Positions 1-40,665 of a stretch of 64,000 bases of DNA are shown one piece after another. The notes below the pieces were generated by a model. That model saw only the letters and a list, made by a program, of their open reading frames with translations. It did no database searches and was not told the DNA's origin. The stretch is from an uncultured Candidatus Saccharibacteria bacterium. GTDB taxonomy: Bacteria > Patescibacteriota > Saccharimonadia > Saccharimonadales > UBA4665. The number at the start of each line of letters is the position of its first letter. Position 1 is the stretch's first letter. Both the position numbers and the translations under genes were made by a program. The DNA lies in contig CAZBRP010000008.1 in NCBI GenBank assembly GCA_964494765.1, positions 4,069-68,068 on the forward strand, in the 5' to 3' direction.

Positions 1-1
1 T

Positions 2-115: not shown

Positions 116-261
116 TAAAATCAAAACTAAATTCTAATCTTACTTGTTTTGATGCTTCTCTATTTCTGCCAACAGTTCAAAATAAGCAACCAACGATTCG
201 ATATCTTGTTGAGTAAGTTGGTCTGAGGTATTTTCAGAATTCCGGTTCATGAAAAAGTATC

Positions 262-1197: not shown

Positions 1198-1256
1198 ATC
1201 TCAACTGTACTCCCCTTAATAACATGTCATAAATTATTGCCTTTATTAACATAATG

Positions 1257-1964
1257 CTACTCATCCACTAAATTAATGGTTTCATCAATATTCATCGAAT
1301 CTAGCATCAAATACAGAGATGTAACTGACATTTTTAGTTTGAATATACTAATCGCAATTATAGTCTTCGCGGCATCAGTCAAATCTTTTCTAATTGGATT
1401 TATTGCTAACACAAATTCGAGTTCTTTATAATCAGCACGAACCTCTAATAATTTTATTCTTACTTCTAACGGTAGCGCAAAAGAGTAGAGTTGCATTATT
1501 TGATCTATCTCATAAATATTGTTCCGAGACTCTGACATTAATCTAGTAGGTAAGTTTTTAAAGTCAAGATCCGTCCTTGTATGTTTAATATCTTTTAACA
1601 TTTTTACTAAATCTAGTGTTTTATTTTCATGGTCCTCAAAGGAGCGCATTTTATAGAATTCATTCGGATCCATTGGATGCCCATAGATTTTACCCATATC
1701 AAGAATAGTGCCATATATTGTTGTGTGTATATTTGACTTAGCCAAGCGGTAAGCCGGTTTTGTTTTGTCGGTTGTGTTCTTGTGTCTTACATACCCTACG
1801 AAAACTAATGCTACCGACGCGGTTATTAAACTCGCACTTAGATTTATCAGGAGGTCACCTACGAACTGATACTTACCAAAACAATACGCGAGTATCAATA
1901 ATAGTACTGAACTTAATGCGCTGAGTATTATCAACTGCTTATTTATACGGTCAAAGTAATTCAT
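1257..1964 (-). CDS. Hypothetical membrane protein with two N-terminal TM helices and a helical C-terminal domain
   Basis: 235-aa ORF. Hydrophobic segments LIILSALSSVLLLILAYCFG and LLINLSASLITASVALVFVGYV. No recognisable catalytic motif. Confidence 0.55.
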   Translation of the reverse strand: MNYFDRINKQLIILSALSSVLLLILAYCFGKYQFVGDLLINLSASLITASVALVFVGYVRHKNTTDKTKPAYRLAKSNIHTTIYGTILDMGKIYGHPMDPNEFYKMRSFEDHENKTLDLVKMLKDIKHTRTDLDFKNLPTRLMSESRNNIYEIDQIMQLYSFALPLEVRIKLLEVRADYKELEFVLAINPIRKDLTDAAKTIIAISIFKLKMSVTSLYLMLDSMNIDETINLVDE

Positions 1965-2002
1965 AATTTTTCGTAATCATAGGATAGTAAATGAGAGTTT
2001 TA

Positions 2003-4168
2003 TCATTTCAACATATCTCTCAATGCTACCGGTAGTTGATCCAATTTTTGCAACGTCGACTTATGTCCTGTTTCAAAACTCAGATAGGTTATTCCATTCT
2101 TATCAAACTTATCAAAGAATAATAATTCAAGGCGCATACATGTCTGACATTCCTCAAGCACGATAAATGGATCAAGGTTAAGATAACCACCATCTTCCCG
2201 CATTATTAATACCGCATCGGTTTTTATAGGCTTTACGGTCTGTCTGGTTTGAATACTGAAATGACTGTTATCTCCCATCAAATCGTAATATTCAACTTCA
2301 AATGAATCGTCATCAAAAGTTAATTTGGTGGATTTTGCGAGTTTGTATTTATATACAAAACCCAATAAATTAATCGTATCTGAAATAATGGGTCTTAAGT
2401 TATCAAAGTGACGCCGATATTCTAGGTCGGGCATAGCAGCGCCATGACCTAATAAATCGTTCCTGTCCCTGATAACATCGTGAAATGTCTCTGCGTATTT
2501 ACCCAAACGGACATCTTTTAGTTCAGATAAAAAGGGTTGAGCATCAGGTTGATTTTTTAGTTTTGTCAGCGCGAAAAATATGTTTACCCAATCGCCCAAT
2601 GCTGGTCGTTGAAGCCTATCTATACCCATCCCAGGGTCCTCGCCCATATTTAGTCGAGTAAGGTAGTCAGAAACATTGATAAGTGCAGTGTACTTTATTA
2701 GGCTTTCAAAGAGTTCGACTAAGATGCTGTATTTATCCTTGTAGGTCTGCGCGTTATCAAGTTTGCGTTGAACAATAGCGATTGGGAAAGGAAGTAATTG
2801 AGAGTACGACTCCTCTGCCTTTAAATATAAGCCTTTTAGATTTGCATTCAATGATTCGTAAATGAATGGATTAGATTCGAAGGATTTCTTAGTATTATCT
2901 ATTACACTAATTAGTTTTTCACTTAAGGCTTCCATCTCTTTGTATGCAGATGCTATGTTCCACTGTATCTCGAGTTCAGGGACAATAATCTCCAGTAAGC
3001 CTAAATCTTTAACGGAAATATAAGGAATGGTTGAGCCTTTTACAATTTTAGATAGCGCATTGGCTCCTATTTCCGAATCAAGGAAAGCAATAAAGTAATC
3101 GGGGTCAATACTTTCATTGAACGTAATGAAAATCGAGTTTTTCTCATTGACCGTATGGTCATCAGCCTTTTTTATGTTACTCCCGGTTTTATTGATAGCA
3201 ATTTGAGAAGAATTCTGTTTTTTACTAACACTAAATGAGGCGACCTCTTCTAGATTCATAACCTGATGCGAATAAGGAAGGTTTTTGAGTTGTTCCGTAT
3301 TATCAATGGGTTCGTGGTACTTATAATCCCATCTGTCAGTTGCATCAACTTCTGCTAGAAATCCTATTTTAGGCTTCCTACCTTCTCGTAACTCATTTAT
3401 TGCCTGTATAACATGATTTAATTCACTTAAGTCTTCAACTTCAATGAATAGCGTATTCACGATTCTTGTATTTTTTCTCAATACAATTAAAGACGTTTTG
3501 ACTCCTGTATATGGAGAAAAGGTAGCAGACGGCAAAGATACAATAGCCTCTAAGCCAAAGTTTTTTAGATAAAACTGTCTTAACTTTTTCTGCCTATCGC
3601 CGTATAGGAACACTTCTGGAAGGATCAATATTGCTTGGTCATTTGTGCCCTCATTTATTGCTTCGGCGAGTTTAGTATCAAAATCACCTTTTATGCCAAA
3701 TGGGGGTATTGTTACTACATTTTCAAATTGTGTACTTCCACGCCAAGAAGTAGGATCATCTGCGACTAGGGTGGAAACTTTCGCATTACCGATACTTATT
3801 AAACGGCAAAAGTTCAGCAATTCTTGATTAGGCTCGACTCCTGTATATTCGACTCCTTGCGTTAGTTCACCGTATCGCGAAAACAAGTTCAGCGTTTTAC
3901 CGGGAACTAATAAGGAAACCACTAATCGATTTATATCTTTTGGTGTATATGGACTTCCAGAGGCAACACGGTTGCCCATGCCTGTTCTGCTTATGAGCCG
4001 TGCAGCAATTTCCTTAAATTCCTCACTCTGATATTCCTCTTTAGTGAATAGTTCGAAACGACCTGATGTGTAATCCTCCAGAAGTGGTGTCGCTTCAAAA
4101 CCATAAGGCAGATTACTGCGATGAGTTTCAAATTTCTTCCAAAGTGATTGAGTTGAGATGTTAGTCAT
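2003..4168 (-). CDS. Degenerate N6-adenine methylase-like domain, one HsdS-like target-recognition domain, and a helical C-terminal domain with an Rx5H (HEPN-like) motif
   Basis: 721 aa. SPYTPKDINRLVVSLL resembles the HsdM pre-motif I. The motif-I position reads LNLFSRYGEL instead of DPxxGSGGFL. Motif IV reads TIPPFG instead of NPPF. KGSTIPYISVKDLGLLEIIVPELEIQ resembles an HsdS TRD/conserved-region junction. The C-terminus contains IRDRNDLLGHG. Its start overlaps the hsdR stop by 8 nt. Confidence 0.6.
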   Translation of the reverse strand: MTNISTQSLWKKFETHRSNLPYGFEATPLLEDYTSGRFELFTKEEYQSEEFKEIAARLISRTGMGNRVASGSPYTPKDINRLVVSLLVPGKTLNLFSRYGELTQGVEYTGVEPNQELLNFCRLISIGNAKVSTLVADDPTSWRGSTQFENVVTIPPFGIKGDFDTKLAEAINEGTNDQAILILPEVFLYGDRQKKLRQFYLKNFGLEAIVSLPSATFSPYTGVKTSLIVLRKNTRIVNTLFIEVEDLSELNHVIQAINELREGRKPKIGFLAEVDATDRWDYKYHEPIDNTEQLKNLPYSHQVMNLEEVASFSVSKKQNSSQIAINKTGSNIKKADDHTVNEKNSIFITFNESIDPDYFIAFLDSEIGANALSKIVKGSTIPYISVKDLGLLEIIVPELEIQWNIASAYKEMEALSEKLISVIDNTKKSFESNPFIYESLNANLKGLYLKAEESYSQLLPFPIAIVQRKLDNAQTYKDKYSILVELFESLIKYTALINVSDYLTRLNMGEDPGMGIDRLQRPALGDWVNIFFALTKLKNQPDAQPFLSELKDVRLGKYAETFHDVIRDRNDLLGHGAAMPDLEYRRHFDNLRPIISDTINLLGFVYKYKLAKSTKLTFDDDSFEVEYYDLMGDNSHFSIQTRQTVKPIKTDAVLIMREDGGYLNLDPFIVLEECQTCMRLELLFFDKFDKNGITYLSFETGHKSTLQKLDQLPVALRDMLK

Positions 4169-6533
4169 TTATAGATACCGCCATATACAACTCACGTTGC
4201 AATTCCAGATAATCACTAACAATTTCTTCTGGTGACCCAAGATGCTTTATCGCATCAGGCATAGTGCGGTACTTAAGTTGCACTAATCCTCTTAAGTTCT
4301 CCATAGATAATTCATTCTCACCTGATTTTTCGTAGGTATCAAGTACAAAGGTCACGAAGTCCCGTTCATCTTCTTCTAGTTGGTCCAAATAGTAATCACG
4401 TATAATTCCAGCCCTTTCGTGTCGCGACATCGTCTCACGAGCGTAGGAAATGTATCGTAGAACGTCATATACATCACTATCCTCGGCGTCTACAAGTTCT
4501 TTCAACTTCTGTAGTTTTTCTTCATCGAAACCACGTTCCGCTAAGCCTTGCAGTAAGGCTTTGCGAGTGCGAGGATCAGACCATTGTTTCTGCAGGTCCT
4601 CTTCTGAAATATAAAATTCTGGCAACTTCCCATAGATTAGTTCCAAGAATTCGGCAGGACCTACGGGCTTTCCGTCCATATAGAATTGAGTCTCTACACT
4701 GTATTTAATTAATCTGCTTTTACCGTCTGCCAACCGAACAACGGTTTTCTGTTTTCTTTCCGTAGCATCAGGCTGTTCCTCACCGGTCCAGTCATTTTCT
4801 GGCTTATCTGTGTCTCCGCCTTCTTCATCGCCGCGTACAGCAGGACCCGCAGTAGTGGGCTCGGTAGGCACTCCAACATCAGTAGTGTCGATTTCGGTAG
4901 GATCGCCATCCCATTCAGGGTCTTCAAACTTCGTCTCATTACCGTAAAAATCTACAATCGTAAAATAATCTTTGCCATCATATATTCGCGTACCGCGTCC
5001 AATAATTTGCTTGAACTCGACCATACTGCCTACGTTGCGCATGAGAACGATAAACCTGACATTCCTAGCATCTACGCCAGTAGATAATTTTCGGCTAGTC
5101 GTTACAATGGTCGGGATTTGGCGTTCGTTATCTCGGAATTCCCTTAATCGCTGGTCACCTAACTCTTTTTCGCTAGCAGTAATCCTAACGCAATAGTTTG
5201 CGTTATCGCCAAGCGTGCCCTCTGGTTTGTACTTGTTTACCGCATCTCGCACCATCGCAGCATGCTTCTCGTCATTGCAGAATACAATTGTCTTTTGATT
5301 AGGATTAATCTGCTCGAGCATGATTTGAACCATTTTCTCTTCACGCTCTGGTAGATAAATCTTATTGTTAAAGTCACTCAAGGTATATTCACGTTCTTTA
5401 TCTACTTCGCCGCTCTCCACTAAATCGTAGGGGTGGAATATGTAGCGGTCCATAGTAGTTGTAACTCGTTTAACTTTAAACGGAGTTAGGAACCCATCCT
5501 CAATGCCTTCCTTTAAGGAGTAGGTGTATCGTGGGTTACCAAAGTAGGCATACGTATCAACGTTGTCATCTCTTTTGGGCGTTGCGGTAAGCCCAAGATG
5601 AGTTGCACCCGTGAAATGATCCAGGACAGCACGCCAGTTGCTTTCATTGCCTGCGCCACCACGGTGACATTCATCAATTATCACCAAGTCAAAAAAATCC
5701 GCGGGGTAATCTTTAAAATATGGGTTTTCTAGTGGTCCGCCAGTCATCGCTTGATAAATACTGAAAAATACATTGCCATTCGTTGGAATTTTTCCTGCCT
5801 TACGGACAGCCTCACCATTAATACGAACAATCTCGTCTTCGAGAGGATTAAAGTCGCCCATGGCTTGCTCTACAAGGACATTACGGTCGGCAAGAAAGAG
5901 CACACGAGGACGACGACCATCACCCTTCTTATCCCAACGTGCCTGGTATAGTTTCCAAACAATCTGAAAAGCGATTGTCGTTTTACCCGTACCCGTTGCT
6001 AGCGTCAGTAATACGCGGTTATCACCGGCTACAATCGACTCTATGGCTCGATTAACCGCATTCTCTTGATAATAGCGAGGGTTGAATTTGCTTCGCTGAA
6101 AAGGTTCAGTAAGAACTGTTTTTTGAGCCTCACTGTAACCCTCAAAAGTTTTGCCGAATAATTCATCTGGTGTGTGATAAGAATCTACATTCTCACCACG
6201 CCCTTTTTTCATATCGAAGAAATAAATACCATGACCGTTAGTACTGTATACAAACCGAATATTCAGGGACTCTGCGTATGCTTTGACTTGCTCAAGTCCA
6301 TCAGTTATCTCTTTATCTTCAGATTTTGCCTCTACGATAGCCATTTTTAAGTTTTTGTAAGCCAGTACGTAATCAGCCTTTTTTTGACGACCACGTTGTC
6401 CGGCACCAATTAAACGTCCATCAGTGAAAATATATTCAGCAATGACTTGCGAGCCAACTGTTTCATTCATGCCCCACCTGGCATCACGAATTTGAGGATC
6501 AATTAATTCACGTCGTGTAGTGGCTTCATTCAT
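4161..6533 (-). CDS. hsdR: Type I restriction enzyme R subunit
   Basis: 790 aa. N-terminal EATTRRELIDPQIRDARWG, Walker A LATGTGKT and a DEAH-type box IIDECHRG. The C-terminal region (DVYDVLRYISY) resembles the EcoEI R C-terminal domain. Confidence 0.9.
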   Translation of the reverse strand: MNEATTRRELIDPQIRDARWGMNETVGSQVIAEYIFTDGRLIGAGQRGRQKKADYVLAYKNLKMAIVEAKSEDKEITDGLEQVKAYAESLNIRFVYSTNGHGIYFFDMKKGRGENVDSYHTPDELFGKTFEGYSEAQKTVLTEPFQRSKFNPRYYQENAVNRAIESIVAGDNRVLLTLATGTGKTTIAFQIVWKLYQARWDKKGDGRRPRVLFLADRNVLVEQAMGDFNPLEDEIVRINGEAVRKAGKIPTNGNVFFSIYQAMTGGPLENPYFKDYPADFFDLVIIDECHRGGAGNESNWRAVLDHFTGATHLGLTATPKRDDNVDTYAYFGNPRYTYSLKEGIEDGFLTPFKVKRVTTTMDRYIFHPYDLVESGEVDKEREYTLSDFNNKIYLPEREEKMVQIMLEQINPNQKTIVFCNDEKHAAMVRDAVNKYKPEGTLGDNANYCVRITASEKELGDQRLREFRDNERQIPTIVTTSRKLSTGVDARNVRFIVLMRNVGSMVEFKQIIGRGTRIYDGKDYFTIVDFYGNETKFEDPEWDGDPTEIDTTDVGVPTEPTTAGPAVRGDEEGGDTDKPENDWTGEEQPDATERKQKTVVRLADGKSRLIKYSVETQFYMDGKPVGPAEFLELIYGKLPEFYISEEDLQKQWSDPRTRKALLQGLAERGFDEEKLQKLKELVDAEDSDVYDVLRYISYARETMSRHERAGIIRDYYLDQLEEDERDFVTFVLDTYEKSGENELSMENLRGLVQLKYRTMPDAIKHLGSPEEIVSDYLELQRELYMAVSIND

Positions 6534-6538
6534 AATGA

Positions 6539-7714
6539 TTATTTTACATCACTGCTAGAGAATGTACGTAATAGCATAGATTTTTTTAGAGCTCTTAAAT
6601 TTTTCATTTTTTCATCATATAAATGCACTAGTTCGGTCGTATTAGTGTGTGCTATTTCAATTTTTGATGAAATACTTTCCTGCACATCCAGTGGCGGTAT
6701 TAGAATATTTTGGTCTTTGAATATTTTATGGGTAATGTCAGGTTGTGCAGCACGAGAGGCAAGTTTAGTAATATTTTTTCTGAATTCTTTATCCTGTAAC
6801 CACCAATACAGATAGTTTTTAGAAAGTGTTGAGTCGGGAGATATTTTGAAACTATTATTATGCAGAATTCCGTAACGGTTCCTGAAGACTAATCCAATCT
6901 GTCCGGTGCGCGTATATATCAAATCATCGGGCATAACCAACGCTTTTTTTGGAAAGTTTTCTTCATCGACGAACTGTTCAGCACTACCCGATCTAAGGTC
7001 TTTTATTCTGAGAAGTGGAAGACTACTTTGCTGAACGAGTAGGTGTTTGGTCTTGGCATTTATAGCAAGTCCTTGCGCTAACTCGCAGACTTCTCCAATT
7101 TTTTTCTGGATCCAAAGCGACGAGTCAGCGCGCAATAGTGCTGAAGTTACGTTGTCAAACAATAATAAGGTATCCTCTCGACTAGTATCTGTCATATCAA
7201 CAGATAAGTTTATTTTTTCAAAAGCAGCGTCCAATTTCCTTACAATTTCTTTTTGCTCGTCGAGTGATTCATCGTAATGTATTACATACTCACCGATAGA
7301 CGCCCTTGGAAGTTCTGTTTGTCCACTCGTACCGGTAGCCATGCCGATAAAATCGTCTTCACACATACTAAATAAATAAGCCAGATAGCGCGGAATAAAC
7401 AAACCCGGCTTAGTGCGGATAATGGTGATGTGTGAATCGACCGACATTTTACTGACAACATCATTAACTAATGCTGTTCGACCTAATGTTCCTTGTCCGG
7501 TGGAGTTAATCAAGATATCTCCCGGCTTAAGGAGTTTTGTTTGCGAGACAGGTTTCAATGCAGAATCATGACGCCGGCTAAATTCGTATGATATTTTATG
7601 GTTACGTATACACCTTTGATTCAAAACGACCAAGCCGCTGGTTTCGTCCGTATACTTCGGCGATATTCCTCGCGTTATAATTTCACAGATATCTTTAAGT
7701 TGAGCAGATTTCAT
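6539..7714 (-). CDS. hsdS: Type I R-M specificity subunit
   Basis: 391 aa, located between hsdM and hsdR. Two variable halves are each followed by a helical conserved region (QKEIVRKLDAAFEKI; QESISSKIEIAHTNTTELVHLYDEKMKNLRALKKSML). Confidence 0.85.
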   Translation of the reverse strand: MKSAQLKDICEIITRGISPKYTDETSGLVVLNQRCIRNHKISYEFSRRHDSALKPVSQTKLLKPGDILINSTGQGTLGRTALVNDVVSKMSVDSHITIIRTKPGLFIPRYLAYLFSMCEDDFIGMATGTSGQTELPRASIGEYVIHYDESLDEQKEIVRKLDAAFEKINLSVDMTDTSREDTLLLFDNVTSALLRADSSLWIQKKIGEVCELAQGLAINAKTKHLLVQQSSLPLLRIKDLRSGSAEQFVDEENFPKKALVMPDDLIYTRTGQIGLVFRNRYGILHNNSFKISPDSTLSKNYLYWWLQDKEFRKNITKLASRAAQPDITHKIFKDQNILIPPLDVQESISSKIEIAHTNTTELVHLYDEKMKNLRALKKSMLLRTFSSSDVK

Positions 7715-9178
7715 CTAAACTTCTAGACCAGCAAGAATCTCTGCGACTCTTGCATCTATTTTTTTTATATCCTCAAGAATATTTTTTGGGTCTTTCAACT
7801 CCTCCGATTCTTCAACAAAAGGATTTCTCACTCCAAGGTCGGCAGAAGTTTTATCAATATCATTAATAGAAATTGTCCAACTATGGTCACTCTGCTCTCT
7901 GCTCTTGTACTTTTCTACAAAATCATACATGTCAGAAATATTTAGTGGTGCAGTCTTACCGAGCGCTCGGTCCACTTTCAACTGATAGTAAAATATCTCC
8001 TTAGTTGGTGCACCCTTTCGAAAAAATAATACGACTGTCTTGACACCTGTAGATCCTGTAGCGCTGAATACGCCACTGGGTAGGTCTAGAATAGTATGCA
8101 AATCAAAATTATCTAAAAGATGACGACGAATAGCGCCCGATGCGCCCGATGGCTCATTAGTTAGAAATGTGTTTTTTATTATAATTGCCGCTTCTCCACC
8201 AACACGAAGTTTTTTCATAAAATGCTGTAGAAAAAGGCTTGCTGTTTCTCGTGTTTTTACGTCAAAATTACGTTGAATTTCTGGATGTTCATTTCCCCCA
8301 AATGGCGGATTGGCTAAAATATAATCGTAACGATCCTTTTCTTGAATATCATGTGTGTCTTCTGTAAGAGTGTTGGTGTGAACCATATTTGGTGATTCGA
8401 TACCATGAAGAATCATATTCATTGTTCCAAGTAGATATGGTTCAGGATTCTTATTTTTACCAAAAAAGGTACTCTCTTTGAGAAACCTCAGTTCCGTAGG
8501 TGTTCCTGCCTTTTCGCGTAAGAATGCATAACTTTCGGTCAGGAAGCCCGCGGAACCCGCAGCACCATCGTAGATGGTTTTGCCTAGTTCAGGATCAATC
8601 GCTCTAATCATTGCCTGGATAAGTGGGCGTGGCGTGTAATACTCGCCGCTTCGACCAGCACCACCCATAAGTTTGAGACGATCCTCATATAGCGCAGAAA
8701 GTTCATCGAGTTCTTCCTGGGTTTTAAAATCTAACTTGTCAATTATATCGATAACTTCTCGGAGATTACGCCCGCTTTGAATCTTGTTGCCGACTTCACC
8801 AAAAATTTCACCAATTTTATAGAGTAAAGATTTAGGGTCCTGGGCTGTATTCTTAAATTCTTTCAGATATGGAAATAATTTTTGATTTACAAATTCGATT
8901 AAATCCTCGCCCGTAACTCGAGCATTGAGGTCTGGTGATCCATCCGTAAGTTTCTGCGCAGCCCAGTTATCCCATTGGAATTCGTCTTTGAAGAGCGGTT
9001 CATATTGTTTGCTTGAGAAGACCGCTTCCTGTTTTCTGATGTCTTCTAAATCGTCTAGGTATTTAAGGAAGAGTATCCATGACATTTGTGCCATATAGTC
9101 GTTGGCGCCGTTAGTACCAGCATCCTCAAAAAGTATATTATCTATTCTTTTAAATTCATTTTGTAATTTTGTTGACAT
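7715..9178 (-). CDS. hsdM: Type I R-M N6-adenine DNA methyltransferase subunit
   Basis: 487 aa. Motif I IYDGAAGSAGFL and motif IV ILANPPFGG, with an HsdM N-terminal helical domain. Its stop abuts the hsdS start. Confidence 0.9.
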   Translation of the reverse strand: MSTKLQNEFKRIDNILFEDAGTNGANDYMAQMSWILFLKYLDDLEDIRKQEAVFSSKQYEPLFKDEFQWDNWAAQKLTDGSPDLNARVTGEDLIEFVNQKLFPYLKEFKNTAQDPKSLLYKIGEIFGEVGNKIQSGRNLREVIDIIDKLDFKTQEELDELSALYEDRLKLMGGAGRSGEYYTPRPLIQAMIRAIDPELGKTIYDGAAGSAGFLTESYAFLREKAGTPTELRFLKESTFFGKNKNPEPYLLGTMNMILHGIESPNMVHTNTLTEDTHDIQEKDRYDYILANPPFGGNEHPEIQRNFDVKTRETASLFLQHFMKKLRVGGEAAIIIKNTFLTNEPSGASGAIRRHLLDNFDLHTILDLPSGVFSATGSTGVKTVVLFFRKGAPTKEIFYYQLKVDRALGKTAPLNISDMYDFVEKYKSREQSDHSWTISINDIDKTSADLGVRNPFVEESEELKDPKNILEDIKKIDARVAEILAGLEV

Positions 9179-9578
9179 GTTGTGTAATATTATACCTTAA
9201 ACTTGTCAAAACTCTTATTGCGCTTTAAAGGATTATTGACAAAAATGAAAGTAAGAATACAGGGGGGTAAGCGCCCTCTGTATCTGTTAGCACTACTCCG
9301 CCGTATAAATGCCGAATTTATGGGGGTAGAACTGCCAAGCGTTTTTTTGGGTGGTCCTAAATTTGTGGGGCTGAGTGCGAAAATGCACTTTTTTGTTACA
9401 ATAAAAGTACATTAAAAATCTATCGTAATTTATGTGGTTACCATTAGCGGAGACAGGACCGTCAAAAAGACTGGGGTAGCAATACACAAAAATTGTAAGA
9501 AAAACGAGATACGAACTCGGCAAAAAACGGGCTTACACGCGTACTAATCTGAAGCATTGCTTCAAGGAAGTTTTCGTG

Positions 9579-9710
9579 ATGCCCGTAAACGCAGATGAAA
9601 CCAATAACTCAGCAGTAGAGACCCTTTTAGATATGCTACGTAAATACATTGACGTTGAACCTGAAAACACGCCATTCCTCGTCAAAGACGGCGTAAAAAT
9701 CATCTTTTAG
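9579..9710 (+). CDS. Small ORF (43 aa) upstream of the recombinase; possible accessory or directionality factor, or spurious
   Basis: ATG preceded by AAGGAAG about 8 nt upstream. Below the ORF-track size cut-off and no recognisable motif. Confidence 0.2.
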   Translation: MPVNADETNNSAVETLLDMLRKYIDVEPENTPFLVKDGVKIIF

Positions 9711-9748
9711 TCAGTAGCCTAAGGTAGCTCTAACTACTACTCTCCGTA

Positions 9749-9754
9749 TATAAT
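9749..9754 (+). promoter_or_regulatory. -10 box TATAAT 7 nt upstream of the recombinase ATG (leaderless-type start)
   Basis: ccgTATAATcagacgcATG. Confidence 0.4.
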
Positions 9755-9761
9755 CAGACGC

Positions 9762-11450
9762 ATGGATGAGTTGAGCAAACAACAACAACTGCTAGAGATG
9801 CTTAAGGGCGGTGACTCAAATGAGGATACACTAGATAAGCAAAAAGTAAGGTATGCACTTTATGCTCGTAAATCAACTACAGGAGATGAAAAGCAGTCGT
9901 CATCTATCGAGGACCAGGTCCGGGATTGTATTGACCGTGTTATTGAACCGCAGGGTCTGAATTTAGTTGCGACCTACGAGGAGAAGTTTTCTGCCAAAGA
10001 GGCTGACACGCGCGAAGAATTTAAGCGACTCATAAACGATATTCAGCGTGGCAGGATAGACGGAGTGATTGCCTGGCATCCGGACCGGCTATCGCGGAAT
10101 ATGAAAGAGGCAGGTACGATTATTGACCTCGTTGATAAGGGTTCAATCAAGGATCTACAGTTTGCTACCTTCACTTTTGAGAATAACCCCGCAGGTAAGA
10201 TGTTACTCGGCATTACGTTCGTAATGGCAAAACAGTACTCGGAACACCTCAGCGAGTCGGTAGATAGAGGAAATCGCAGGGCTATTGAGGATGGAGAGTT
10301 TATCGGAAAATTCAAACATGGATACGTAATAGACGCTGAACGCCATTTCCAGCCCGACCCCGATAGTTTCATAAAGATTAAGCATATGTTCGAGATGGCG
10401 CTTGCTCGTAAATCTCAAAAAGAAATAAGGCTGTGGATCAATGAGCAGGACTACAAGGTCCAAAAGAAACAAGGAGCAGATCCAGTAGGTCATAAATGGA
10501 GCAAGGATGATGTGTCTGAACTCTTACGAGACTCTCATTATGCGGGTGTACACAAATGGGGTAAGAACTTAATTGCCATAGCAGAATTCTACGAGTTCCA
10601 GCCGATGATAACCGTTGACCAGTTTCTGGAAATTAATAAAATAGATAGCCTCAATTCTTCTAAGGTCCTGGCGCTGAGGCGACCGAGGACCGAAACAAGA
10701 GCGGACTTTCTAAGGGGCGTTGTCTACTGCGGACACTGCCACAAGACTCTGACATCAATGCTAATCGATAAAAAGAAAGATGGTGCGATAGTCAGTTCAA
10801 GGTATTACTACAAATGCGAAACGGCGGGTTGTGAAATGGAGGGTAAGTCCGCCCGTGCCAAGTACGTGATAGATGCTGCACAAGAATTTCTGGCAACTTA
10901 CCTATTTGTTAACAAATCGAACTATGCAACCTTTCTAAAGAGCGCAAAAGCCCAGATAAAACGCACCCAACACGACATAGACTCGGCGATTGCAAAACTA
11001 ACAAAGGACATCGCGAATAAGCAGTCTGCATACGAGAATATAAAGAGACTAATAGAAAGAGACGAGGCTGGCACACTTAAGCGGCATTATGACCTTGATG
11101 AAATATTGGCTGCTGTAACCGATATGCAAGAGCGACACGCTAAATTGGTACAGATGCGCAGGGATGCACCGAACGCACTGCCTACATTCGAGGAATATCT
11201 CAAACTATTTGAATCGACCTCTGTTATTTTGGGCAAAATACGCGATATGAAGCAGATGGACGCATTCATCAGGATTTTCTTCTCTAACTTTACAATTACA
11301 GCTACCGGAGAAGACTTCAGACGGGGGTCAACAGTAGTGTATAAACTAAACGAACCCTATGAAGGGTTCGTTAAAAATGGTGATTTCGTTCTTGGTGCGG
11401 GTCAGGGGACTCTAACCCCTGGCCTCATCCTTGGCAAGGATGCGCTCTAA
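9762..11450 (+). CDS. Large serine recombinase (integrase type)
   Basis: 562 aa. Resolvase catalytic domain YALYARKSTTGDEKQSSSIEDQ and DRLSRN, then a recombinase domain, a Cys-rich zinc ribbon (CGHCHK...YYKCETAGC) and a coiled-coil. The last 58 nt overlap tRNA-Gly on the opposite strand. Confidence 0.9.
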   Translation: MDELSKQQQLLEMLKGGDSNEDTLDKQKVRYALYARKSTTGDEKQSSSIEDQVRDCIDRVIEPQGLNLVATYEEKFSAKEADTREEFKRLINDIQRGRIDGVIAWHPDRLSRNMKEAGTIIDLVDKGSIKDLQFATFTFENNPAGKMLLGITFVMAKQYSEHLSESVDRGNRRAIEDGEFIGKFKHGYVIDAERHFQPDPDSFIKIKHMFEMALARKSQKEIRLWINEQDYKVQKKQGADPVGHKWSKDDVSELLRDSHYAGVHKWGKNLIAIAEFYEFQPMITVDQFLEINKIDSLNSSKVLALRRPRTETRADFLRGVVYCGHCHKTLTSMLIDKKKDGAIVSSRYYYKCETAGCEMEGKSARAKYVIDAAQEFLATYLFVNKSNYATFLKSAKAQIKRTQHDIDSAIAKLTKDIANKQSAYENIKRLIERDEAGTLKRHYDLDEILAAVTDMQERHAKLVQMRRDAPNALPTFEEYLKLFESTSVILGKIRDMKQMDAFIRIFFSNFTITATGEDFRRGSTVVYKLNEPYEGFVKNGDFVLGAGQGTLTPGLILGKDAL

Positions 11451-34414: not shown

Positions 34415-35443
34415 CTAGTTTAAGATAATATAGTCGAAGCCAAAGGTTTGTGAGCCAGGGGCCGGATTTATAGTGCAAACGCTAAAGCTGCTACTGGAGC
34501 GGTTCACGTAATAATCTACCGAAGCAGCACTGGCACCAATCGGTGTAACAACTACGTGGGGTGTGCCGTTAAAAGCGCGCGTGAAGTTAATGGTTGCAAA
34601 ACAGCCGGCACCCGGAGAGCTACCGGTGTTGACAGTAATTGACCCGGTAGTGTCTGAACCGCTGACTGAGGCCGTACCGCCGCCGCCCAAGGCAATGCCT
34701 TGGCTAATACCGGGTATAGGCCCACCGGCTGTAATGTGCCTAGTAAGTACGAGGTCGCCGTTAAGCTGTAAAGCTCCGGTAGTAATTTGGGTGGCCGAAA
34801 CGTTACCGCTAAAGTTGCTATTGCCCGAGACGTTAATGCCACTACGGGCTGTAAGTGCTCCTTGTACGGTTGCGGCCCCGGTAATTCCTAGGGTGCTTGC
34901 CTGGATCTGATTAAAGTTACTAGTGCCAGATACGGTAATGCCAGGTAAGGCAAGAGCGCCGTTAACACGAATCGTGCCGGCTACTTCTAGGTCGTTACGC
35001 ACTAAAACAGTGCCCGAAAAGATGGCATTAGACTCAATATTAAGCGTTTGCTTGGCGCTGCCAATGGTAGAGTCGGTGCTGGCCAGCTGCTTAAGTTCGC
35101 TTTCGGATAGGCCTTGTGTTGTAACAGTGTTGCTGGTGGTTTTTTGCTTGTCTTTAACGGTAAAGAACACTACCACAGCAATGGCAACTAGTACGATCAA
35201 TACAAAGAGTAGTAGGTATATGTTAAAGCGGTGCCAGATGCGTTTAAAAATAGGCGGCTTAGGTGACGGTGTATCGGGAGTGACATTAGTGTCTTCAAGT
35301 GTACTCAAAGAAGAGTCACCGCTGGTGGGCGTAGAAGCGGTTACGTACGGACTGGCTGCGGGCGCAGCGTGAACTGCCGGCTCTTCACGCTCCAGCGAAG
35401 TACTATCGTTATCGGTGTCGGATTGTAGTTGTGATGGGTCCAT
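34415..35443 (-). CDS. Membrane-anchored surface protein with beta-helix-like G/T/S/N-rich repeats
   Basis: Acidic/Ser-rich N-terminus, TM IYLLLFVLIVLVAIAVVVFF, then repeated (V/I)xG(N/T/A)xx(V/I/F)xG units and a C-terminal globular domain. Confidence 0.65.
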   Translation of the reverse strand: MDPSQLQSDTDNDSTSLEREEPAVHAAPAASPYVTASTPTSGDSSLSTLEDTNVTPDTPSPKPPIFKRIWHRFNIYLLLFVLIVLVAIAVVVFFTVKDKQKTTSNTVTTQGLSESELKQLASTDSTIGSAKQTLNIESNAIFSGTVLVRNDLEVAGTIRVNGALALPGITVSGTSNFNQIQASTLGITGAATVQGALTARSGINVSGNSNFSGNVSATQITTGALQLNGDLVLTRHITAGGPIPGISQGIALGGGGTASVSGSDTTGSITVNTGSSPGAGCFATINFTRAFNGTPHVVVTPIGASAASVDYYVNRSSSSFSVCTINPAPGSQTFGFDYIILN

Positions 35444-35539
35444 TGCTCTTGTATTACTGCTTATAGTAATAATACTAAACTCTGGCTAAAAAGCGTAAAC
35501 GGATTGTGTTTATGTTCGCATTGGGGCACAATAAAAAGC

Positions 35540-36283
35540 ATGCAACGCAGGCTTGCGAGGGTAACAATGGCCATACTTACTGCGGCAGTATTAGTGTACT
35601 GTCCTTTTGCGGCCGCTCAACAATCTTCGTCGAGCCATTACAGTGTCGATGAGGTCTTTTTTGGATCTGGCGGTGAGCTTAACGCCTGTTCTACTAACTA
35701 TTGTTCTAAGCAATCGGCCGGCGAAATGGGTTCCGGGCGCTCGGCCTCTACAAACTATACAGCGCAAACCGGATTCAATACTGACCGTGCGCCTTTTATC
35801 GCATTTAATGTTACTGGCGGTAGTACCGACTTGGGCGTACTTTCTACAGGTTCAACCGCCACCGCCACGGCTACTTTTTCGGTAAAAACATATTTGGCGG
35901 GTGGCTATGTGGTGCAGACCGCATCTGATCCCCCTACAAATACTTTGCCAAATAGCCCCATGCTCCACAATCTAACTTCGGCCACGGCATCATCGGCGGG
36001 AACAGAGCAGTTTGGTATGAACCTTGTGGCTAATACTAGTCCGACTACTTTTGGCGCTAATCCAATCCAGGTACCCGATAGTAGCTTTAGCTTTGGTAAC
36101 GCAGCTGCCGGCTACAATACGGCCAATCTATTTAAGTACGTTAAAAATGATACGGTGGCTTCTTCTACTAAGAGTAGTGGTGAGACTGACTACACTATTT
36201 CGTACATTTTTAACATCTCAAATGTTACGGCTGCTGGTGAGTACCAATTCCATCATGTCCTCGTAGCTACGTCTACTTTCTAG
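35540..36283 (+). CDS. Secreted surface-locus protein A (paralog family, C-terminal ...ATSTF)
   Basis: Signal peptide MQRRLARVTMAILTAAVLVYCPFAAA. Shared blocks GTEQFGMNL and TAAGEYQFHHVLVATSTF*. The ORF track starts at TTG 35504. Confidence 0.7.
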   Translation: MQRRLARVTMAILTAAVLVYCPFAAAQQSSSSHYSVDEVFFGSGGELNACSTNYCSKQSAGEMGSGRSASTNYTAQTGFNTDRAPFIAFNVTGGSTDLGVLSTGSTATATATFSVKTYLAGGYVVQTASDPPTNTLPNSPMLHNLTSATASSAGTEQFGMNLVANTSPTTFGANPIQVPDSSFSFGNAAAGYNTANLFKYVKNDTVASSTKSSGETDYTISYIFNISNVTAAGEYQFHHVLVATSTF

Positions 36284-36415
36284 GCGTCAAGGTCTCCACA
36301 AATAATTAAAAAGCTGTGGATAATTTACTTTTGCTCGTTGTTTTGTTTGCATAAGCATGATAACGTTAAGTCATAAATTAAAACATCAAAAATGAAAATA
36401 AGGGAGAGATCCGTT

Positions 36416-37519
36416 ATGTCGATCAAAAAAAGAGGATTGCGTCTTGCAGCGTACAGCGCACTCGCGCTTGTACTTTCCGTTGCTGCTGTACTTCCAAGCC
36501 TTAACCAGCACGCTTATGCTGCTCAGCTTACGAGCCGTAGTATTGAAATGAGCAGCTCAACCGCTGGTGCAACGGGGACCACTTACCTTATTAGTTTTAC
36601 AACCGCTACGGCCGGCGTGCTTAAGGGCATTGTTATTGATTTTTGTGATAACACCCCAATCATCGGTGATAGCACGTGTACTGCACCTACGGGTTTTAGT
36701 GTTGGTACGCCAACTGCTAGCACATCTGGTTTGCCAGGTTCCTGGACGGCTGCATCAGCTAACACTAACCGTACGCTAACACTTGTTAACGCAAGCAACA
36801 GCACGTCAGTTGGTGCAAGCACGGCTATTACTATTACATTAACAACCGCTACTAATCCAAACACCGATAACCACAGCTTCTATGCACGTGCCTTAACATA
36901 CCTTAACTCAAGTGGTGCTAACAGCCCTGCAACATATGCGCCAGGTACAGAAGGCACCTATGTTGATGCCGGTGGTATGGCAATGAGCACTGGTAAGGTG
37001 ATTAACATTACTGCTCGCGTTATGGAAAGCTTGGCATTCTGTGTATACAACGCATCTTGTGGTGATGACCCAAGTGTAACTATCGGTCACGGCGCCAACA
37101 ATATTTTGGACGCCACTGCCGTTGACACTAAAACAGCAAACTTCAGCATTTCTACTAACGCCCAGTCCGGCGCAACCATACGCTTAAAGGGTACAACACT
37201 TATAAGCGGACCCAATGATATTGATGCCGCTGGCGCGTCGGCTATTACCTTCGCGGCTGGCACCGAAAAGTTTGGTGTACGTGTCTCAAGTGCTGGTACT
37301 AACATTACAGCAACATCGCCATACGACGGCGGTTCGGGCTCACAATACGCCTTTAACACAACTAATACCACCAGTACTTATGGCGACAACATCGCCACTC
37401 TCAGCGGCCCCGTAAACAGCTCAGTAACAACCCTAACTTTTGCGGCAACTGCTGCTAACACAACTGCGGCCGGAATCTATACTGCCGCTCAGCAGTTAAT
37501 CGCAACTGGTCAATTCTAA
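36416..37519 (+). CDS. Secreted surface-locus protein B (paralog family, C-terminal ...ATGQF)
   Basis: SD GGGAGAG 7 nt upstream of ATG 36416. Signal peptide ending AYAAQLTSRS. Blocks GTEKFGVRV and TAAGIYTAAQQLIATGQF*. Confidence 0.75.
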   Translation: MSIKKRGLRLAAYSALALVLSVAAVLPSLNQHAYAAQLTSRSIEMSSSTAGATGTTYLISFTTATAGVLKGIVIDFCDNTPIIGDSTCTAPTGFSVGTPTASTSGLPGSWTAASANTNRTLTLVNASNSTSVGASTAITITLTTATNPNTDNHSFYARALTYLNSSGANSPATYAPGTEGTYVDAGGMAMSTGKVINITARVMESLAFCVYNASCGDDPSVTIGHGANNILDATAVDTKTANFSISTNAQSGATIRLKGTTLISGPNDIDAAGASAITFAAGTEKFGVRVSSAGTNITATSPYDGGSGSQYAFNTTNTTSTYGDNIATLSGPVNSSVTTLTFAATAANTTAAGIYTAAQQLIATGQF

Positions 37520-37523
37520 AGTA

Positions 37524-38597
37524 GTGCTTTGGCGCAGAAAGGCAGCTGTCCCGGTGCGCTTGCATAAAAAGCTTACCGTTACTATACTCGCGATCTCCCT
37601 ATTAATAGGGGGGTCGCTGTATGCTTCTTTTGCGCAAGCCGCACAAATTACCTCGCGGTCGTTACAGCTTGGCTCTAACATTGCCGGAGAACACAATGTT
37701 AACTACAAAGTTGGCTTTTCTATCGCAACTGCTGGTTCCATCCAGTCAATTGCTATTGAGTTTTGTGGTAACTCAGCACTTATCGAGGATCCTTGCGTGG
37801 CTCCATATGGCTTTGACGCCCTCAATGCGAATTTAGTCAATTCCACGGGCATATCAGGCTTTATCATATCGCCCAGCTCTACAGTTAATAAGATTGTGCT
37901 AACCCACGCTCCCTCGGGTCCGGTAAGCGCTGGGCCAGTGGGCTTTGAATTTGGCAACATTGTAAACCCAACAGACCCAGAGTCGTACTACACCAAGATA
38001 TCTACCTATACCAGCACCGATGCTACGGGTTCGCCTGTTGACTTTGGTGCGTTGGCTTTTTCAATTAACAGGAGTTTTGACGTAAGTGTTGAGGTGCCGC
38101 CTTATTTGTTATTCTGCCAAGGGGTGTCTATCGATGGCTATGACTGCTCCACAGCTCAGGGGGACTTGCTTAACCTGGGCCAGCTCAGCGATGAACTGCC
38201 CAGCGCTGCCCAATCGCAAATTTTGGCTGCAACTAATGCATCCGGTGGCTATAACGTTTCTATGAATGGCGGTACGATGACTTCCGGTAATAACATTTTG
38301 CCTGCTATGGCTGGAACGGCGTCGGCAGTCGGCACTAGCCAATTTGGTGTAAACTTACGCTCTAATGCTAACCCCGACATTGGTATTGACCCTGATGGTC
38401 CCGGTACGGGAACGGCAACCGCAGGTTATAATCTTCCCAATCGTTTTAGGTTTAATAATGGCGACGTAATCGCTGTTGCCTCCGGTGTACAAGATTACAA
38501 AAAGTATACTATTAGTTATTTAGTCAATGTTGCCAAAGATCAAGCTCCAGGGGTGTACTCGACTACGCTCACGTATATTTGCTTGGCAAATTTCTAA
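37524..38597 (+). CDS. Secreted surface-locus protein C (paralog family, C-terminal ...CLANF)
   Basis: Signal peptide ending FAQAAQITSRS (parallel to protein B). Blocks GTSQFGVNL and APGVYSTTLTYICLANF*. The start is uncertain (GTG 37524, GTG 37554 or TTG 37560). Confidence 0.72.
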   Translation: MLWRRKAAVPVRLHKKLTVTILAISLLIGGSLYASFAQAAQITSRSLQLGSNIAGEHNVNYKVGFSIATAGSIQSIAIEFCGNSALIEDPCVAPYGFDALNANLVNSTGISGFIISPSSTVNKIVLTHAPSGPVSAGPVGFEFGNIVNPTDPESYYTKISTYTSTDATGSPVDFGALAFSINRSFDVSVEVPPYLLFCQGVSIDGYDCSTAQGDLLNLGQLSDELPSAAQSQILAATNASGGYNVSMNGGTMTSGNNILPAMAGTASAVGTSQFGVNLRSNANPDIGIDPDGPGTGTATAGYNLPNRFRFNNGDVIAVASGVQDYKKYTISYLVNVAKDQAPGVYSTTLTYICLANF

Positions 38598-38642
38598 TGC
38601 TTTGTGCTAGTATAAGCTAAAGAAGTTTAAAAAGGGGAAGTA

Positions 38643-39656
38643 ATGTTACGACGAAAGATCGCTTCGTTGGGATTCGTGCTTGGTGCATCTGCTATATTGT
38701 TTAGCGCCAGTACGGCCTTCGCTGCCACACAAACTGCCGCAACGGCAACATCACAGAGTACCGGTAATGCACTTAAGGTGTCGCCAGTACGAACAGACGT
38801 AGAAATTAAGGCAGGCACTAGTCAGACTGTTGAAATCTATGTTCAAAATATGACTGATGACGCCACAAAGCTGCGCGGAATCATTAACGACTTCGTAGCT
38901 GGTAAGGGTGAGAATGGTACACCAAACATTATTCTCGATGCAGATCAGGCGGCCCCCAGCCATAGCTTAAAGCAATATGTTGAGCCGGTTGGTGATTTTA
39001 CTTTGGCTGCCAACGAACAAAAGACCATTAAAGTTAAAATTACTATTCCAGCTTCAGCTTCGGCTGGTGGTTATTATGGGGCTGTACGTTTTGCTCCTGC
39101 CTCTTCAACCAGTGACCAAAACGTGACTTTATCGGCGAGCGTCGGTTCGTTGTTGCTCGTAAAGGTGCCTGGTGATATCAAAGAAGACCTAAGTATCGCA
39201 AGCTTTGATGTGCGCAAAGACGACCACCCCGGCAGCTTCTTTACCTCGGGTAAAGACCTAAAGTCTATTGTTCGCTTCCAAAACAAGGGTGATGTGCAAG
39301 AAGCACCTTTTGGTAAGGTATTGCTTAAAAAAGGCAATAAAACTCTGGCAAGCTACGAGATCAACAATGAGCAGCCACGTGGTAACGTTTTGCCTGACAG
39401 CGTGCGCCGTTTTAGTGTTGACCTTGATAAAGTAGACTCTTTTGGTAAGTATAAGCTTGAGGGCAACTTTGGCTATGGTGCCAAAGGCCAGCTACTTGCT
39501 GCGAGCCAAACATTTTACGTTGTACCTATCCCTATTATCGTTATCACGGTAGCGGTAATCCTGCTTATCTTAGCTGCCATCTTCGTGATCCCACGAATGG
39601 TAAAGGGCTACAATAAGCGTATTGTACAAAAAGCAACCGGCAGCAAGCGCAAGTAA
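38643..39656 (+). CDS. Two-Ig-domain cell-surface protein with a C-terminal TM anchor (DUF916/DUF3324-like, as in Gram-positive WxL loci)
   Basis: Signal peptide, then VSPVRTDVEIKAGTSQTVEIYVQNMTDD...ITIPASASAGGYYGAVRF. A second beta-rich domain follows, then C-terminal TM IPIIVITVAVILLILAAIFVI and a basic tail. SD-like GGGGAAG upstream. Confidence 0.6.
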   Translation: MLRRKIASLGFVLGASAILFSASTAFAATQTAATATSQSTGNALKVSPVRTDVEIKAGTSQTVEIYVQNMTDDATKLRGIINDFVAGKGENGTPNIILDADQAAPSHSLKQYVEPVGDFTLAANEQKTIKVKITIPASASAGGYYGAVRFAPASSTSDQNVTLSASVGSLLLVKVPGDIKEDLSIASFDVRKDDHPGSFFTSGKDLKSIVRFQNKGDVQEAPFGKVLLKKGNKTLASYEINNEQPRGNVLPDSVRRFSVDLDKVDSFGKYKLEGNFGYGAKGQLLAASQTFYVVPIPIIVITVAVILLILAAIFVIPRMVKGYNKRIVQKATGSKRK

Positions 39657-39675
39657 AACTGCGAATGCTTACAAC

Positions 39676-39708
39676 AAAGGCTGTTCCTGGCTCTGGAGCA
39701 GCCTTTTT
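39676..39708 (+). terminator. Rho-independent terminator after 38643..39656
   Basis: 12-bp stem (one G-U) aaaggctgttcc/ggagcagccttt with a 7-nt loop and a T-run. Confidence 0.5.
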
Positions 39709-39750
39709 ATATTGCTTAAGGCTATATTGACAGGTAAAGTAGTGGTAGAC

Positions 39751-40665
39751 ATGAAGAATATCCTGGTAGCATTCCGACGGATACTTGCCGCTACAGTGGT
39801 GAGTAGCTTAGTGGTGCTGCAAGCCGCATCAGGATGGGTGGGGGTCGCCTCGGCAGCAGCCCCAGCACCCGAAAACCCTAAGTCAGGTTCAATGGGTCTT
39901 ACTGGCACACTTGCTAGCGCACCACCCACAACAGGTGCTACGATTACGGCGCCGCGTAATGGCCAGAGCTTTACAAACTTGCCTGTAACAGTAGCTGGCT
40001 TGTGCCCTCGTGGCCTGATGGTTAAGGTGTTTGATAACAATGTGTTTATGGGCTCGGTATTGTGTGCTTCGGGCAGCTATTCTATTCAAATCGACTTATT
40101 TAGTGGCCAAAACGACCTTATTGTACGGGTATATGATTCTTTGGATCAAGCTGGTCCGGACTCTAATATTGTAACGGTTAACTTTAACGATGCGCAGTTT
40201 AACCCCTCTGGATCACCGCTACTAAGTCTTACGAGCGACTTTGCTCGCCGTGGTGCTAACCCTGGCGACACCTTGGTGTGGCCTATTATCCTGGGCGGCG
40301 GTACAGGCCCTTATGCTATTAGTGTGGACTGGGGCGACAACAAAGCACAAGACCTTATCAGCCAGCAGTTCCAGGGTGTCGTTGATCTTAAGCATATTTA
40401 CGATACGGCTGGCGTATATAGCGTTATTATTAAGGCTACCGACAAAAATGGCCTCACTGCTTACTTGCAGGTAATTGGCGTAGCCAACGGGGCTGTGACT
40501 CAGTCGGCAGGCACTGGTGGCACAGGCTCCGAGATTATTACGGTTGAAAAGGTGTTATGGTTACCAGCCATGATTATGATTCCGTTTATCATCGTGTCGT
40601 TTTGGCTCGGCCGCCGCTTTGAATTATCTACACTCCGCAAGCATATCCAAGAATCTGACTATTAG
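39751..40665 (+). CDS. Surface protein with Ig-like and PKD domains and a C-terminal TM anchor
   Basis: Signal/anchor ILAATVVSSLVVLQAASGWVGVASA. PKD-like WGDN...HIYDTAGVYSVIIKATDKNG. C-terminal TM LPAMIMIPFIIVSFWL. The start is set at ATG 39751 because the ORF-track start (39622) lies inside the preceding gene. Confidence 0.7.
   Translation: MKNILVAFRRILAATVVSSLVVLQAASGWVGVASAAAPAPENPKSGSMGLTGTLASAPPTTGATITAPRNGQSFTNLPVTVAGLCPRGLMVKVFDNNVFMGSVLCASGSYSIQIDLFSGQNDLIVRVYDSLDQAGPDSNIVTVNFNDAQFNPSGSPLLSLTSDFARRGANPGDTLVWPIILGGGTGPYAISVDWGDNKAQDLISQQFQGVVDLKHIYDTAGVYSVIIKATDKNGLTAYLQVIGVANGAVTQSAGTGGTGSEIITVEKVLWLPAMIMIPFIIVSFWLGRRFELSTLRKHIQESDY

Follow-up and report, generated by a model that had tools for sequence, protein, structure and literature searches.

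The closest described relatives of the locus reported here are the Pam filaments of Candidatus Mycosynbacter amalyticus (Troman et al. 2026, bioRxiv 10.64898/2026.03.03.709456; PMC13278184) and the WxL pili of Bacillota (Sleutel et al., bioRxiv 10.64898/2026.10.17.759780). The locus comprises five genes at positions 35540-40665 of a 64,000-nucleotide stretch of DNA (contig CAZBRP010000008.1 of GenBank assembly GCA_964494765.1), the whole of which we call the window, and it belongs to an uncultured soil bacterium of the Saccharimonadia, a lineage of the Candidate Phyla Radiation (CPR). Cryo-electron microscopy (cryo-EM) of the Pam filaments revealed two-domain pilins, PamA and PamB, in which a strand of the interdomain linker inserts into the truncated immunoglobulin (Ig)-like C-terminal domain of the adjacent subunit; conservation in these proteins is highest in the donated linker and in the site that binds it (PMC13278184). 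The filaments are hundreds of nanometres long and, by proteomics, their pilins are among the most abundant proteins. AlphaFold models in the same study place PamT at the tip, PamE as a basal pilin, PamC and PamD as membrane-anchored chaperones, and PamR, described as RbmA-like, as terminator and membrane anchor; across the CPR, the conserved neighbours of the pam genes are ATP-synthase genes and a tail-fibre-like gene, and retraction machinery was not found (PMC13278184).

In the WxL (Elr) pilus of Enterococcus faecalis and other Bacillota, the DUF916/DUF3324 chaperone ElrE primes and nucleates the donor-strand polymerisation of the WxL pilins ElrD and ElrC, as established by genetics, biochemistry and cryo-EM, and the pilus is completed by a tip subunit (ElrA) and an LPxTG terminator (ElrB) (Sleutel et al., bioRxiv 10.64898/2026.10.17.759780). 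The same study finds a C-terminal transmembrane (TM) helix in 96.7% of WxL chaperones and states that the system is confined to Bacillota, with no mention of the CPR; Troman et al. (PMC13278184) in turn mention neither WxL nor DUF916, and the literature searched contained no paper joining Pam and WxL chaperones. Chaperone-usher pili (Pap/Fim, Caf1, Csu and CFA/I) offer a third comparison, as they too are built of incomplete Ig-like subunits that are completed by a chaperone and then by the strand of a neighbour, with tip, shaft and terminator roles divided alike.

Layout and identity of the locus

The five open reading frames (ORFs) at 35540-40665 all lie on the + strand with short gaps between them, and all are predicted to encode secreted proteins, each beginning with a basic, hydrophobic stretch and then an AxA-type site (signal peptides were called by eye from the sequence, not by a predictor). 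This agrees with an initial annotation of the bare DNA letters, which had described a five-gene secreted or surface locus here.

35540-36283, + strand: A, PamT, the tip pilin; 247 amino acids, mature ~23 kDa; by NF058579
36416-37519, + strand: B, probable shaft pilin; 367 amino acids, mature ~33 kDa; by NF058581
37524-38597, + strand: C, pilin and probable basal adaptor; 357 amino acids, mature ~33 kDa, GTG start; by NF058581
38643-39656, + strand: D, membrane-anchored assembly chaperone; 337 amino acids; by PF06030, AlphaFold2 (AF2), Foldseek and HHalign
39751-40665, + strand: E, PamR, terminator and membrane anchor; 304 amino acids; by NF058578

Alternative starts exist for A (TTG at 35504, upstream) and B (ATG at 36392), and the frame of E is open over 39622-40665, with the likely ATG start at 39751 yielding the 304-residue protein.

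Using the Pam models of NCBIfam release 20, we found that A matches the equivalog CPR_pilus_PamT (NF058579) over its full model length at 325.4 bits (cut-off 240) and that E matches the equivalog CPR_pilus_PamR (NF058578) at 420.7 bits (cut-off 300). The model for the Pam pilin C-terminal domain (NF058581, cut-off 55), which none of 14 control genomes matches, was hit by A (156 bits, spanning residues 91-247), B (92.5 bits) and C (163.9 bits). NCBIfam holds no model for D; NF058580, guessed to be the chaperone model, turned out to be an unrelated lipase family. These assignments indicate that the locus is very probably a compact Pam pilus operon of a Saccharimonadia bacterium, in a form with one chaperone and two two-domain pilins, and they give a name to what the initial annotation had called a dedicated surface-fibre assembly unit. 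The Pam system is already known with cryo-EM structures, and the locus is a further, typical example that current NCBI models can name; it extends a system believed to make the first host contact by one further genome of an uncultured soil member of the Saccharimonadia. The initial annotation had also singled out the epibiont case as the one of interest, and the CPR affiliation of the organism bears that out. In its own genome (1.29 Mb, 78% complete), the single chaperone gene and the three genes with a pilin C-terminal domain are all at this locus.

The operon shares with that of M. amalyticus PamT and PamR at equivalog level, the pilin C-terminal domain in A, B and C, the two-domain pilin plan with its conserved linker and paired cysteines, a membrane-anchored chaperone with two Ig-like domains, an anchor held by a TM helix, and ATP-synthase-like and fibre-like neighbours. 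The order PamT, pilin, pilin, chaperone, PamR is also that of the first five genes of the type operon, as inferred from accession order and from one related locus, L065. The type operon has three pilins and two chaperones; here the PamB-PamC pair at its end is missing, which leaves one chaperone and two two-domain pilins. The mature shaft pilin is also smaller, ~33 kDa compared with 55 kDa for PamA and 39 kDa for PamB.

A scan of one genome per species yielded 209 relatives of D, and linkage was counted on the best 80 of these loci, all of which came from Saccharimonadia or Saccharibacteria metagenome-assembled genomes and had the same flanks. The conserved order is ATPase beta and epsilon, the fibre gene (on the - strand), PamT, B, C, chaperone, PamR, mnmA and alaS. 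PamT, B and C lay upstream of the chaperone in 53 of the 56 species loci with enough flank, the three loci without PamT in range being explained by extra B copies that push it out, and PamR lay downstream in 72 of 73. Thus, rather than being scattered, the homologs of A, B and C are linked to the chaperone nearly invariantly across the 80 species, and the five-gene form is the usual Saccharimonadia layout in this sample, simpler than the type operon. Locus L065, in which PamR is followed by another pilin and another chaperone, matches the seven-gene order inferred for the type operon.

The constancy of the upstream flank bears on a larger machine, in which the adjacent F1-like ATPase and the fibre-like protein would power or guide export, anchoring or retraction of the pilus, and of which pam would be only a part; we regard this as unlikely. 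Upstream of pam, the genes for ATPase beta and epsilon reach as far as 34257, and the next gene is as follows.

34415-35443, - strand: fibre-like membrane protein, divergent from PamT, with tail fibre or beta-helix resemblance

Both stand directly upstream of pam in the great majority of the 80 loci that reach far enough, the fibre-like gene in the same position and orientation in 52, and the same neighbourhood, with no retraction machinery found, was reported across the CPR (PMC13278184). However, donor-strand exchange in chaperone-usher systems requires no external energy, and ElrE and ElrD alone polymerise in E. coli. Gene order in small, streamlined genomes can moreover be inherited without functional coupling, the downstream mnmA and alaS being equally conserved, and outside Saccharimonadia the chaperone-pilin pairs that we read were recognised without recourse to the ATPase and fibre neighbourhood, in a comparison confined to the pairs themselves. 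The fibre-like protein has type II membrane topology, a region rich in Gly, Asn and Thr that resembles a beta-helix, and weak Pfam matches only (Bactofilin-like, 2e-4; H_lectin, 0.018). Its counterpart in the published pam neighbourhood is the 'tail fibre-like protein'; it is a conserved neighbour, a candidate pilus part at most.

Pilins, donor strands and assembly

The initial annotation had listed motifs shared by A, B and C, every one of which is present in their alignment. The internal block reads GTEQFGMNL (A), GTEKFGVRV (B) and GTSQFGVNL (C); all three proteins have the C-terminal block (A/P)(A/G)G(E/I/V)Y...F-stop, and B and C have the mature N-terminus AAQ(L/I)TSRS in common. The blocks shared by all three fall within the NCBIfam model of the Pam pilin C-terminal domain and are among the best-conserved columns in 55-76 orthologs of each protein; judging from these alignments, they are not due to chance.

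In the AF2 monomer of B (mean predicted local distance difference test, pLDDT, 82), residues 39-191 form an N-terminal sandwich and residues 206-365 a C-terminal domain that we read as a putative truncated-Ig acceptor, with a linker modelled at low confidence (194-201) between them. By gene order, B takes the pamA slot. Its gene is the most variable of the operon, with a median ortholog identity of 37% compared with 53-56% for PamT, the chaperone and PamR, and is present in 2-6 copies in about a dozen loci (4-6 in L037 and L062). Divergence and duplication of this kind are what would be expected of an exposed, possibly host-specific subunit. Two cysteine pairs are conserved per pilin, as in PamA and PamB: in B, the pair C77/C88 and C209 are invariant, with C215 six residues after C209, and in C all four (C81, C91, C198 and C208) are invariant. 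Almost every locus has a single copy of pilin C, whose linker AEVPPYLLFC is conserved, and where the upstream sequence is long enough its gene is, essentially without exception, the one immediately before the chaperone; from its sequence, C appears to be a two-domain Pam pilin in the pamE slot. B is probably the shaft subunit and C the basal adaptor. The slot labels rest on gene order and on locus L065, and we do not extend them to naming B and C as PamA, PamB or PamE orthologs.

Donor-strand complementation had been anticipated, but with the C-terminal strand as the donor, whereas in the Pam structures the donated strand is the interdomain linker. By analogy with these structures, the linker is most likely the donor in the present pilins as well, and the candidate in B is as follows.

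36995-37039, + strand: candidate donor strand of B, residues 194-208, KVINITARVMESLAF

In ortholog alignments, conservation along the pilins peaks in the linker and in the C-terminal strand, and the linker consensus of the B family, ITITARVMETLTFC, is the most conserved stretch of that family, a pattern that fits the published Pam mechanism and so supports the linker as donor. It has alternating hydrophobic and small residues (I-x-I-x-A-x-V-x-E-x-L-x-F), and its low pLDDT in the monomer is expected if the strand folds only within a neighbouring subunit. The C-terminal strand ending in Phe most likely forms the edge of the acceptor groove, as it does in chaperone-usher and WxL pilins.

PamT has the acceptor C-terminal domain and lacks the donor linker. 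Its N-terminal module of ~65 residues (~27-90, window 35618-35810) is strongly conserved, more so than the shaft pilins' N-terminal domains, with cysteines in a C-x4-C pair (NACSTNYCSK) and two S-x-(H/N)-Y...G-F segments that resemble each other; it may serve as a tip cap or a ligand-binding site, both being candidate roles. At the other end of the operon, the initial annotation had taken the fifth gene for a PKD protein with its own anchor. The anchor stood, as a conserved C-terminal TM helix, and the PKD assignment did not (E = 0.0025, below threshold): the protein is PamR, with a signal peptide, an N-terminal strand (SGSMGLTGTLAS) and two domains of fibronectin type III (FnIII)- or PKD-like character, for which Pfam gives sub-threshold matches only (Glucodextran_B, PKD_4).

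From the family memberships, domain architectures, conservation pattern and synteny observed here, we infer the following route of assembly. All five proteins would cross the membrane via Sec, and D, tethered by its C-terminal helix, would use one of its own strands to cap the Ig-like C-terminal domain that is still incomplete in each newly exported pilin. The fibre would start at the tip with PamT, which offers an acceptor domain and no donor linker; copies of B would then be added serially, the linker strand of each entering the C-terminal domain of the previous subunit and displacing the chaperone, and pilin C would join at the base. PamR, which offers no acceptor domain, would donate its N-terminal strand and end growth, its TM helix holding the fibre in the membrane. 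The finished fibre probably makes the first contact with the host bacterium. The same logic without an usher, namely a donor-less tip, a strand-exchanging shaft and a donating terminator without an acceptor domain, operates in the WxL pilus.

Several points weigh against this reading of the locus. The polymer is known from homologous systems, and the present evidence is genomic. The chaperone role of PamC and PamD in the CPR rests on AlphaFold models in a preprint, and this operon lacks the PamB-PamC pair of the type organism. Whole-chain Foldseek of B returned only generic two-Ig adhesins (SdrE, ClfB, integrins, CfaE and FimH) at TM-scores of 0.1-0.27, the copy of the PDB searched containing no Pam structure, and in a genome only 78% complete a second pam locus could have escaped detection. 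The first of these points would suit a static surface-display platform, in which D would be a WxLIP-type scaffold holding A, B and C as single adhesins and no fibre would form. D does belong to the WxLIP family (see below), for which this was the accepted reading until 2026 (Hassan et al. 2023, PMC10599100). For WxL clusters themselves, however, the platform model has since given way to that of a donor-strand pilus, and the homologous Pam pilins form the long, abundant, strand-exchanged filaments described above; a tip without a donor strand together with a terminator without an acceptor is, furthermore, the division of labour of a polymerising system. We therefore consider the platform very unlikely, and the Pam pilus operon remains our reading of the locus.

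The pilins themselves are unrelated to WxL domains in our comparisons, which upholds the earlier remark that the partners of the fourth gene lack WxL motifs and represent a different cargo family. None of the five proteins contains a W-x-L motif or a C-terminal LPxTG signal; PF13731 (WxL) matches neither A, B and C nor any of 30 B orthologs, and Fimbrial and SCPU models of Pfam match none of 30 pilin orthologs. The idea that the Pam pilin C-terminal domain is a diverged WxL domain was rejected, as HHalign against Bacillota WxL proteins gave 2% probability for the C family and 1% for the B family. One short C-terminal resemblance exists: the last strand of C-type pilins, PGVYxTTLTYICLANF (window 38550-38597), recalls the second WxL motif region (GVYxTTLTYICL compared with YxTTLTWxL), and it is the only segment that HHalign pairs between the C family and WxL, at that same 2% probability. 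It could reflect convergence on a groove-lining strand or faint shared ancestry. Sequence searches against PDB chains gave no match for B and a chance match only for C.

The chaperone family

The fourth gene had been described as resembling the DUF916/DUF3324 proteins of WxL loci, with a signal peptide, two Ig-like domains, a C-terminal TM segment and a basic tail, and both parts of this description were confirmed. In the AF2 model of D (pLDDT 80), two beta-sandwich domains (residues 44-152 and 167-293) are followed by a TM helix (296-332) and a basic tail. The gathering score of PF06030 (DUF916, WxLIP_PGBD) is 27.3 bits; D reaches 34.2, and the model matches 28 of 28 D orthologs (best E = 1.3e-10). 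PF11797 (DUF3324, WxLIP_HBD) and PF00345 (PapD_N) matched none of these orthologs at E up to 1. The fold search pointed the same way: the top Foldseek matches in the PDB were the Enterococcus faecium WxLIP structures 9i25_C and 9i1y (E = 1e-11, 270 columns). Searches of PDB sequences with D and with its profile found EfmWxLIP1 weakly (E = 0.65 and 0.07, respectively).

For profile comparison we assembled six full-length WxLIPs and seven small WxL proteins of Bacillota from plasmid records. HHalign aligned the Pam chaperones with the six WxLIPs at 97.5% probability (E = 5.7e-12) over 214 columns spanning both Ig domains, with leader and TM helix left out, and with a single Listeria WxLIP at 89.7%; the controls gave 0.1% for FimC and 1.2% for the Pam pilin family. 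The second domain of D aligns with WxLIP both by HHalign (to column 276) and by Foldseek (270 columns), and is therefore divergent rather than absent. Taken together, the PF06030 match, the fold and the profile alignment make D a true member of the WxLIP (DUF916-DUF3324-TM) family with a different cargo family, and it is a chaperone of the PamC/PamD type. Its homology to ElrE/WxLIP is solid, and is compatible with both shared ancestry and horizontal transfer. As ElrE has been shown to be a donor-strand-exchange chaperone, this relationship supports the mechanism proposed above for D, in which the following element is the candidate donor.

39066-39167, + strand: candidate donor element of D, residues 142-175, comprising F1 strand, loop and G1 strand

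Its F1 strand reads GGYYGAVRFAP and its G1 strand VTLSASVGSLLLVKV, with a variable loop between the two. The F1 and G1 residues are the most conserved of the chaperone family and the loop (156-159) is poorly conserved with low pLDDT; the element comes directly after the DUF916 match, and the donor strand of ElrE (141-152) has the equivalent relative position. By this analogy, we take the element as the putative chaperone donor strand.

With the WxL pilus, then, the locus shares a homologous chaperone with a C-terminal TM helix and the clustering of its genes on one strand. It differs in that the Pam pilins are not WxL domains, in that their donor strand is an internal linker between domains where that of WxL pilins is an N-terminal extension, in being anchored by the TM protein PamR rather than by a sortase-linked LPxTG protein, and in a second chaperone domain that PF11797 misses. 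With chaperone-usher pili it shares a two-domain beta-sandwich chaperone of similar fold (Foldseek E = 1e-8 to 1e-7). Pam, however, has no usher, outer membrane or periplasm, its chaperone is membrane-tethered, its filament is linear and its pilins have two domains; sequence relation is lacking as well (no match to PF00345 or PF00419; HHalign 0.1-0.4%). Although CfaA, Caf1M, SafB, CsuC and FimC follow WxLIP among the significant Foldseek matches of D (E = 5e-9 to 5e-7) and Troman et al. (PMC13278184) give PapD and FimC as structural homologues of the Pam chaperones, it is very unlikely that the locus is a classical chaperone-usher system that has lost its usher and whose chaperone descends from PapD/FimC, given that none of the D orthologs matches PF00345, that FimC reaches 0.1% by HHalign where one WxLIP sequence reaches 89.7%, that WxLIP outranks every chaperone-usher chaperone in the fold search, that the C-terminal TM helix is common to WxLIPs and found in no chaperone-usher chaperone, that the pilins match neither Fimbrial nor SCPU (HHalign against FimA, 0.4%), and that there is no usher gene, no usher-sized ORF at the locus and no outer membrane.

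The WxLIP-family chaperone also occurs beyond Bacillota, in about a third of the CPR genomes sampled. In 301 sampled Patescibacteria genomes, PF06030 matched 111 (67 above the Pfam cut-off) and the Pam pilin C-terminal-domain model NF058581 matched 91; both models are weak on distant CPR sequences, and these counts are thus lower bounds. A DUF916 match lay within 10 kb of a Pam pilin C-terminal domain in 36 of the 301 genomes, from 25 families and always on the same strand, with a pilin directly upstream of the chaperone in 26 of the 36. In about half of the genomes with a DUF916 match, no Pam pilin could be detected, and we examined three such loci from three families outside Saccharimonadia.

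L091: G121:C1:360000-374000
L092: G177:C2:4000-16000
L093: G055:C2:213000-227000

All three carry DUF916 chaperone homologs of 466-536 amino acids beside small WxL-relative proteins. At least three of these four chaperone homologs have two LysM domains, which in the G121 proteins come after a TM-like segment. The small neighbours scored 25.4, 22.4 and 20.8 bits against the Pfam WxL model, and as a group they aligned by HHalign with Bacillota WxL proteins at 96.1% (E = 3e-9), compared with 8% for Pam pilins. With both WxL-linked and Pam-linked chaperones present, the CPR appears to combine a single chaperone family with either of two families of cargo. A gene for a PMT_2-type glycosyltransferase (PF13231, E = 3.5e-9; - strand, 8280-9962 of L092) was also seen inside this WxL/DUF916 cluster; it may be related to pilin glycosylation, given the extra density seen on Ser356 of PamA (PMC13278184).

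These results connect two pili described in separate 2026 preprints, neither of which refers to the system of the other: in both sequence and fold, the Pam chaperone is a relative of ElrE/WxLIP. ElrE/WxLIP is the only chaperone of its kind with genetic and biochemical proof of donor-strand priming, and the link thereby gives CPR pili an experimentally grounded mechanism; PF06030, with its matches in over a third of the sampled genomes, is also a better family marker for finding such pili. We lean, by a modest degree of confidence, towards the view that the Pam pili of the CPR and the WxL pili of Bacillota are two branches of one old, usher-less pilus class of single-membrane bacteria, defined by a membrane-tethered DUF916-DUF3324 chaperone. 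If so, the ElrE experiments would transfer directly to the host-attachment fibres of the CPR.

Further features of the locus and its surroundings

A hairpin separates the chaperone from PamR, between the stop codon of the former and the start of the latter.

39676-39706, + strand: terminator-like hairpin, with a 12 bp stem and then a T-rich tail

Stems of at least 10 bp after the chaperone stop occurred in 13 of the 80 loci (16%), compared with 2% of coding controls, and the nearest relatives (L005, L007 and L012) have a hairpin at the same offset with different stem sequences. A universal terminator between chaperone and PamR was rejected, since the folding energy of this region resembles that of coding controls (median -17.4 compared with -16.0 kcal/mol). 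The hairpin is therefore a clade-level feature; it may act as an attenuator that keeps the terminating subunit PamR scarce. In a scan for sigma-70 promoters, sites were no more frequent than in shuffled sequence.

Elsewhere in the genome, and not near pam, there are three sortase-domain genes (C9:38144-38548, C5:78624-79016 and C4:57290-57640), one of these domains sitting in a 521-amino-acid open frame. Finally, the first part of the window (1-10000) has a G+C content of 35-44%, compared with ~46-51% over most of the remainder, and this low-G+C region may have been horizontally acquired.

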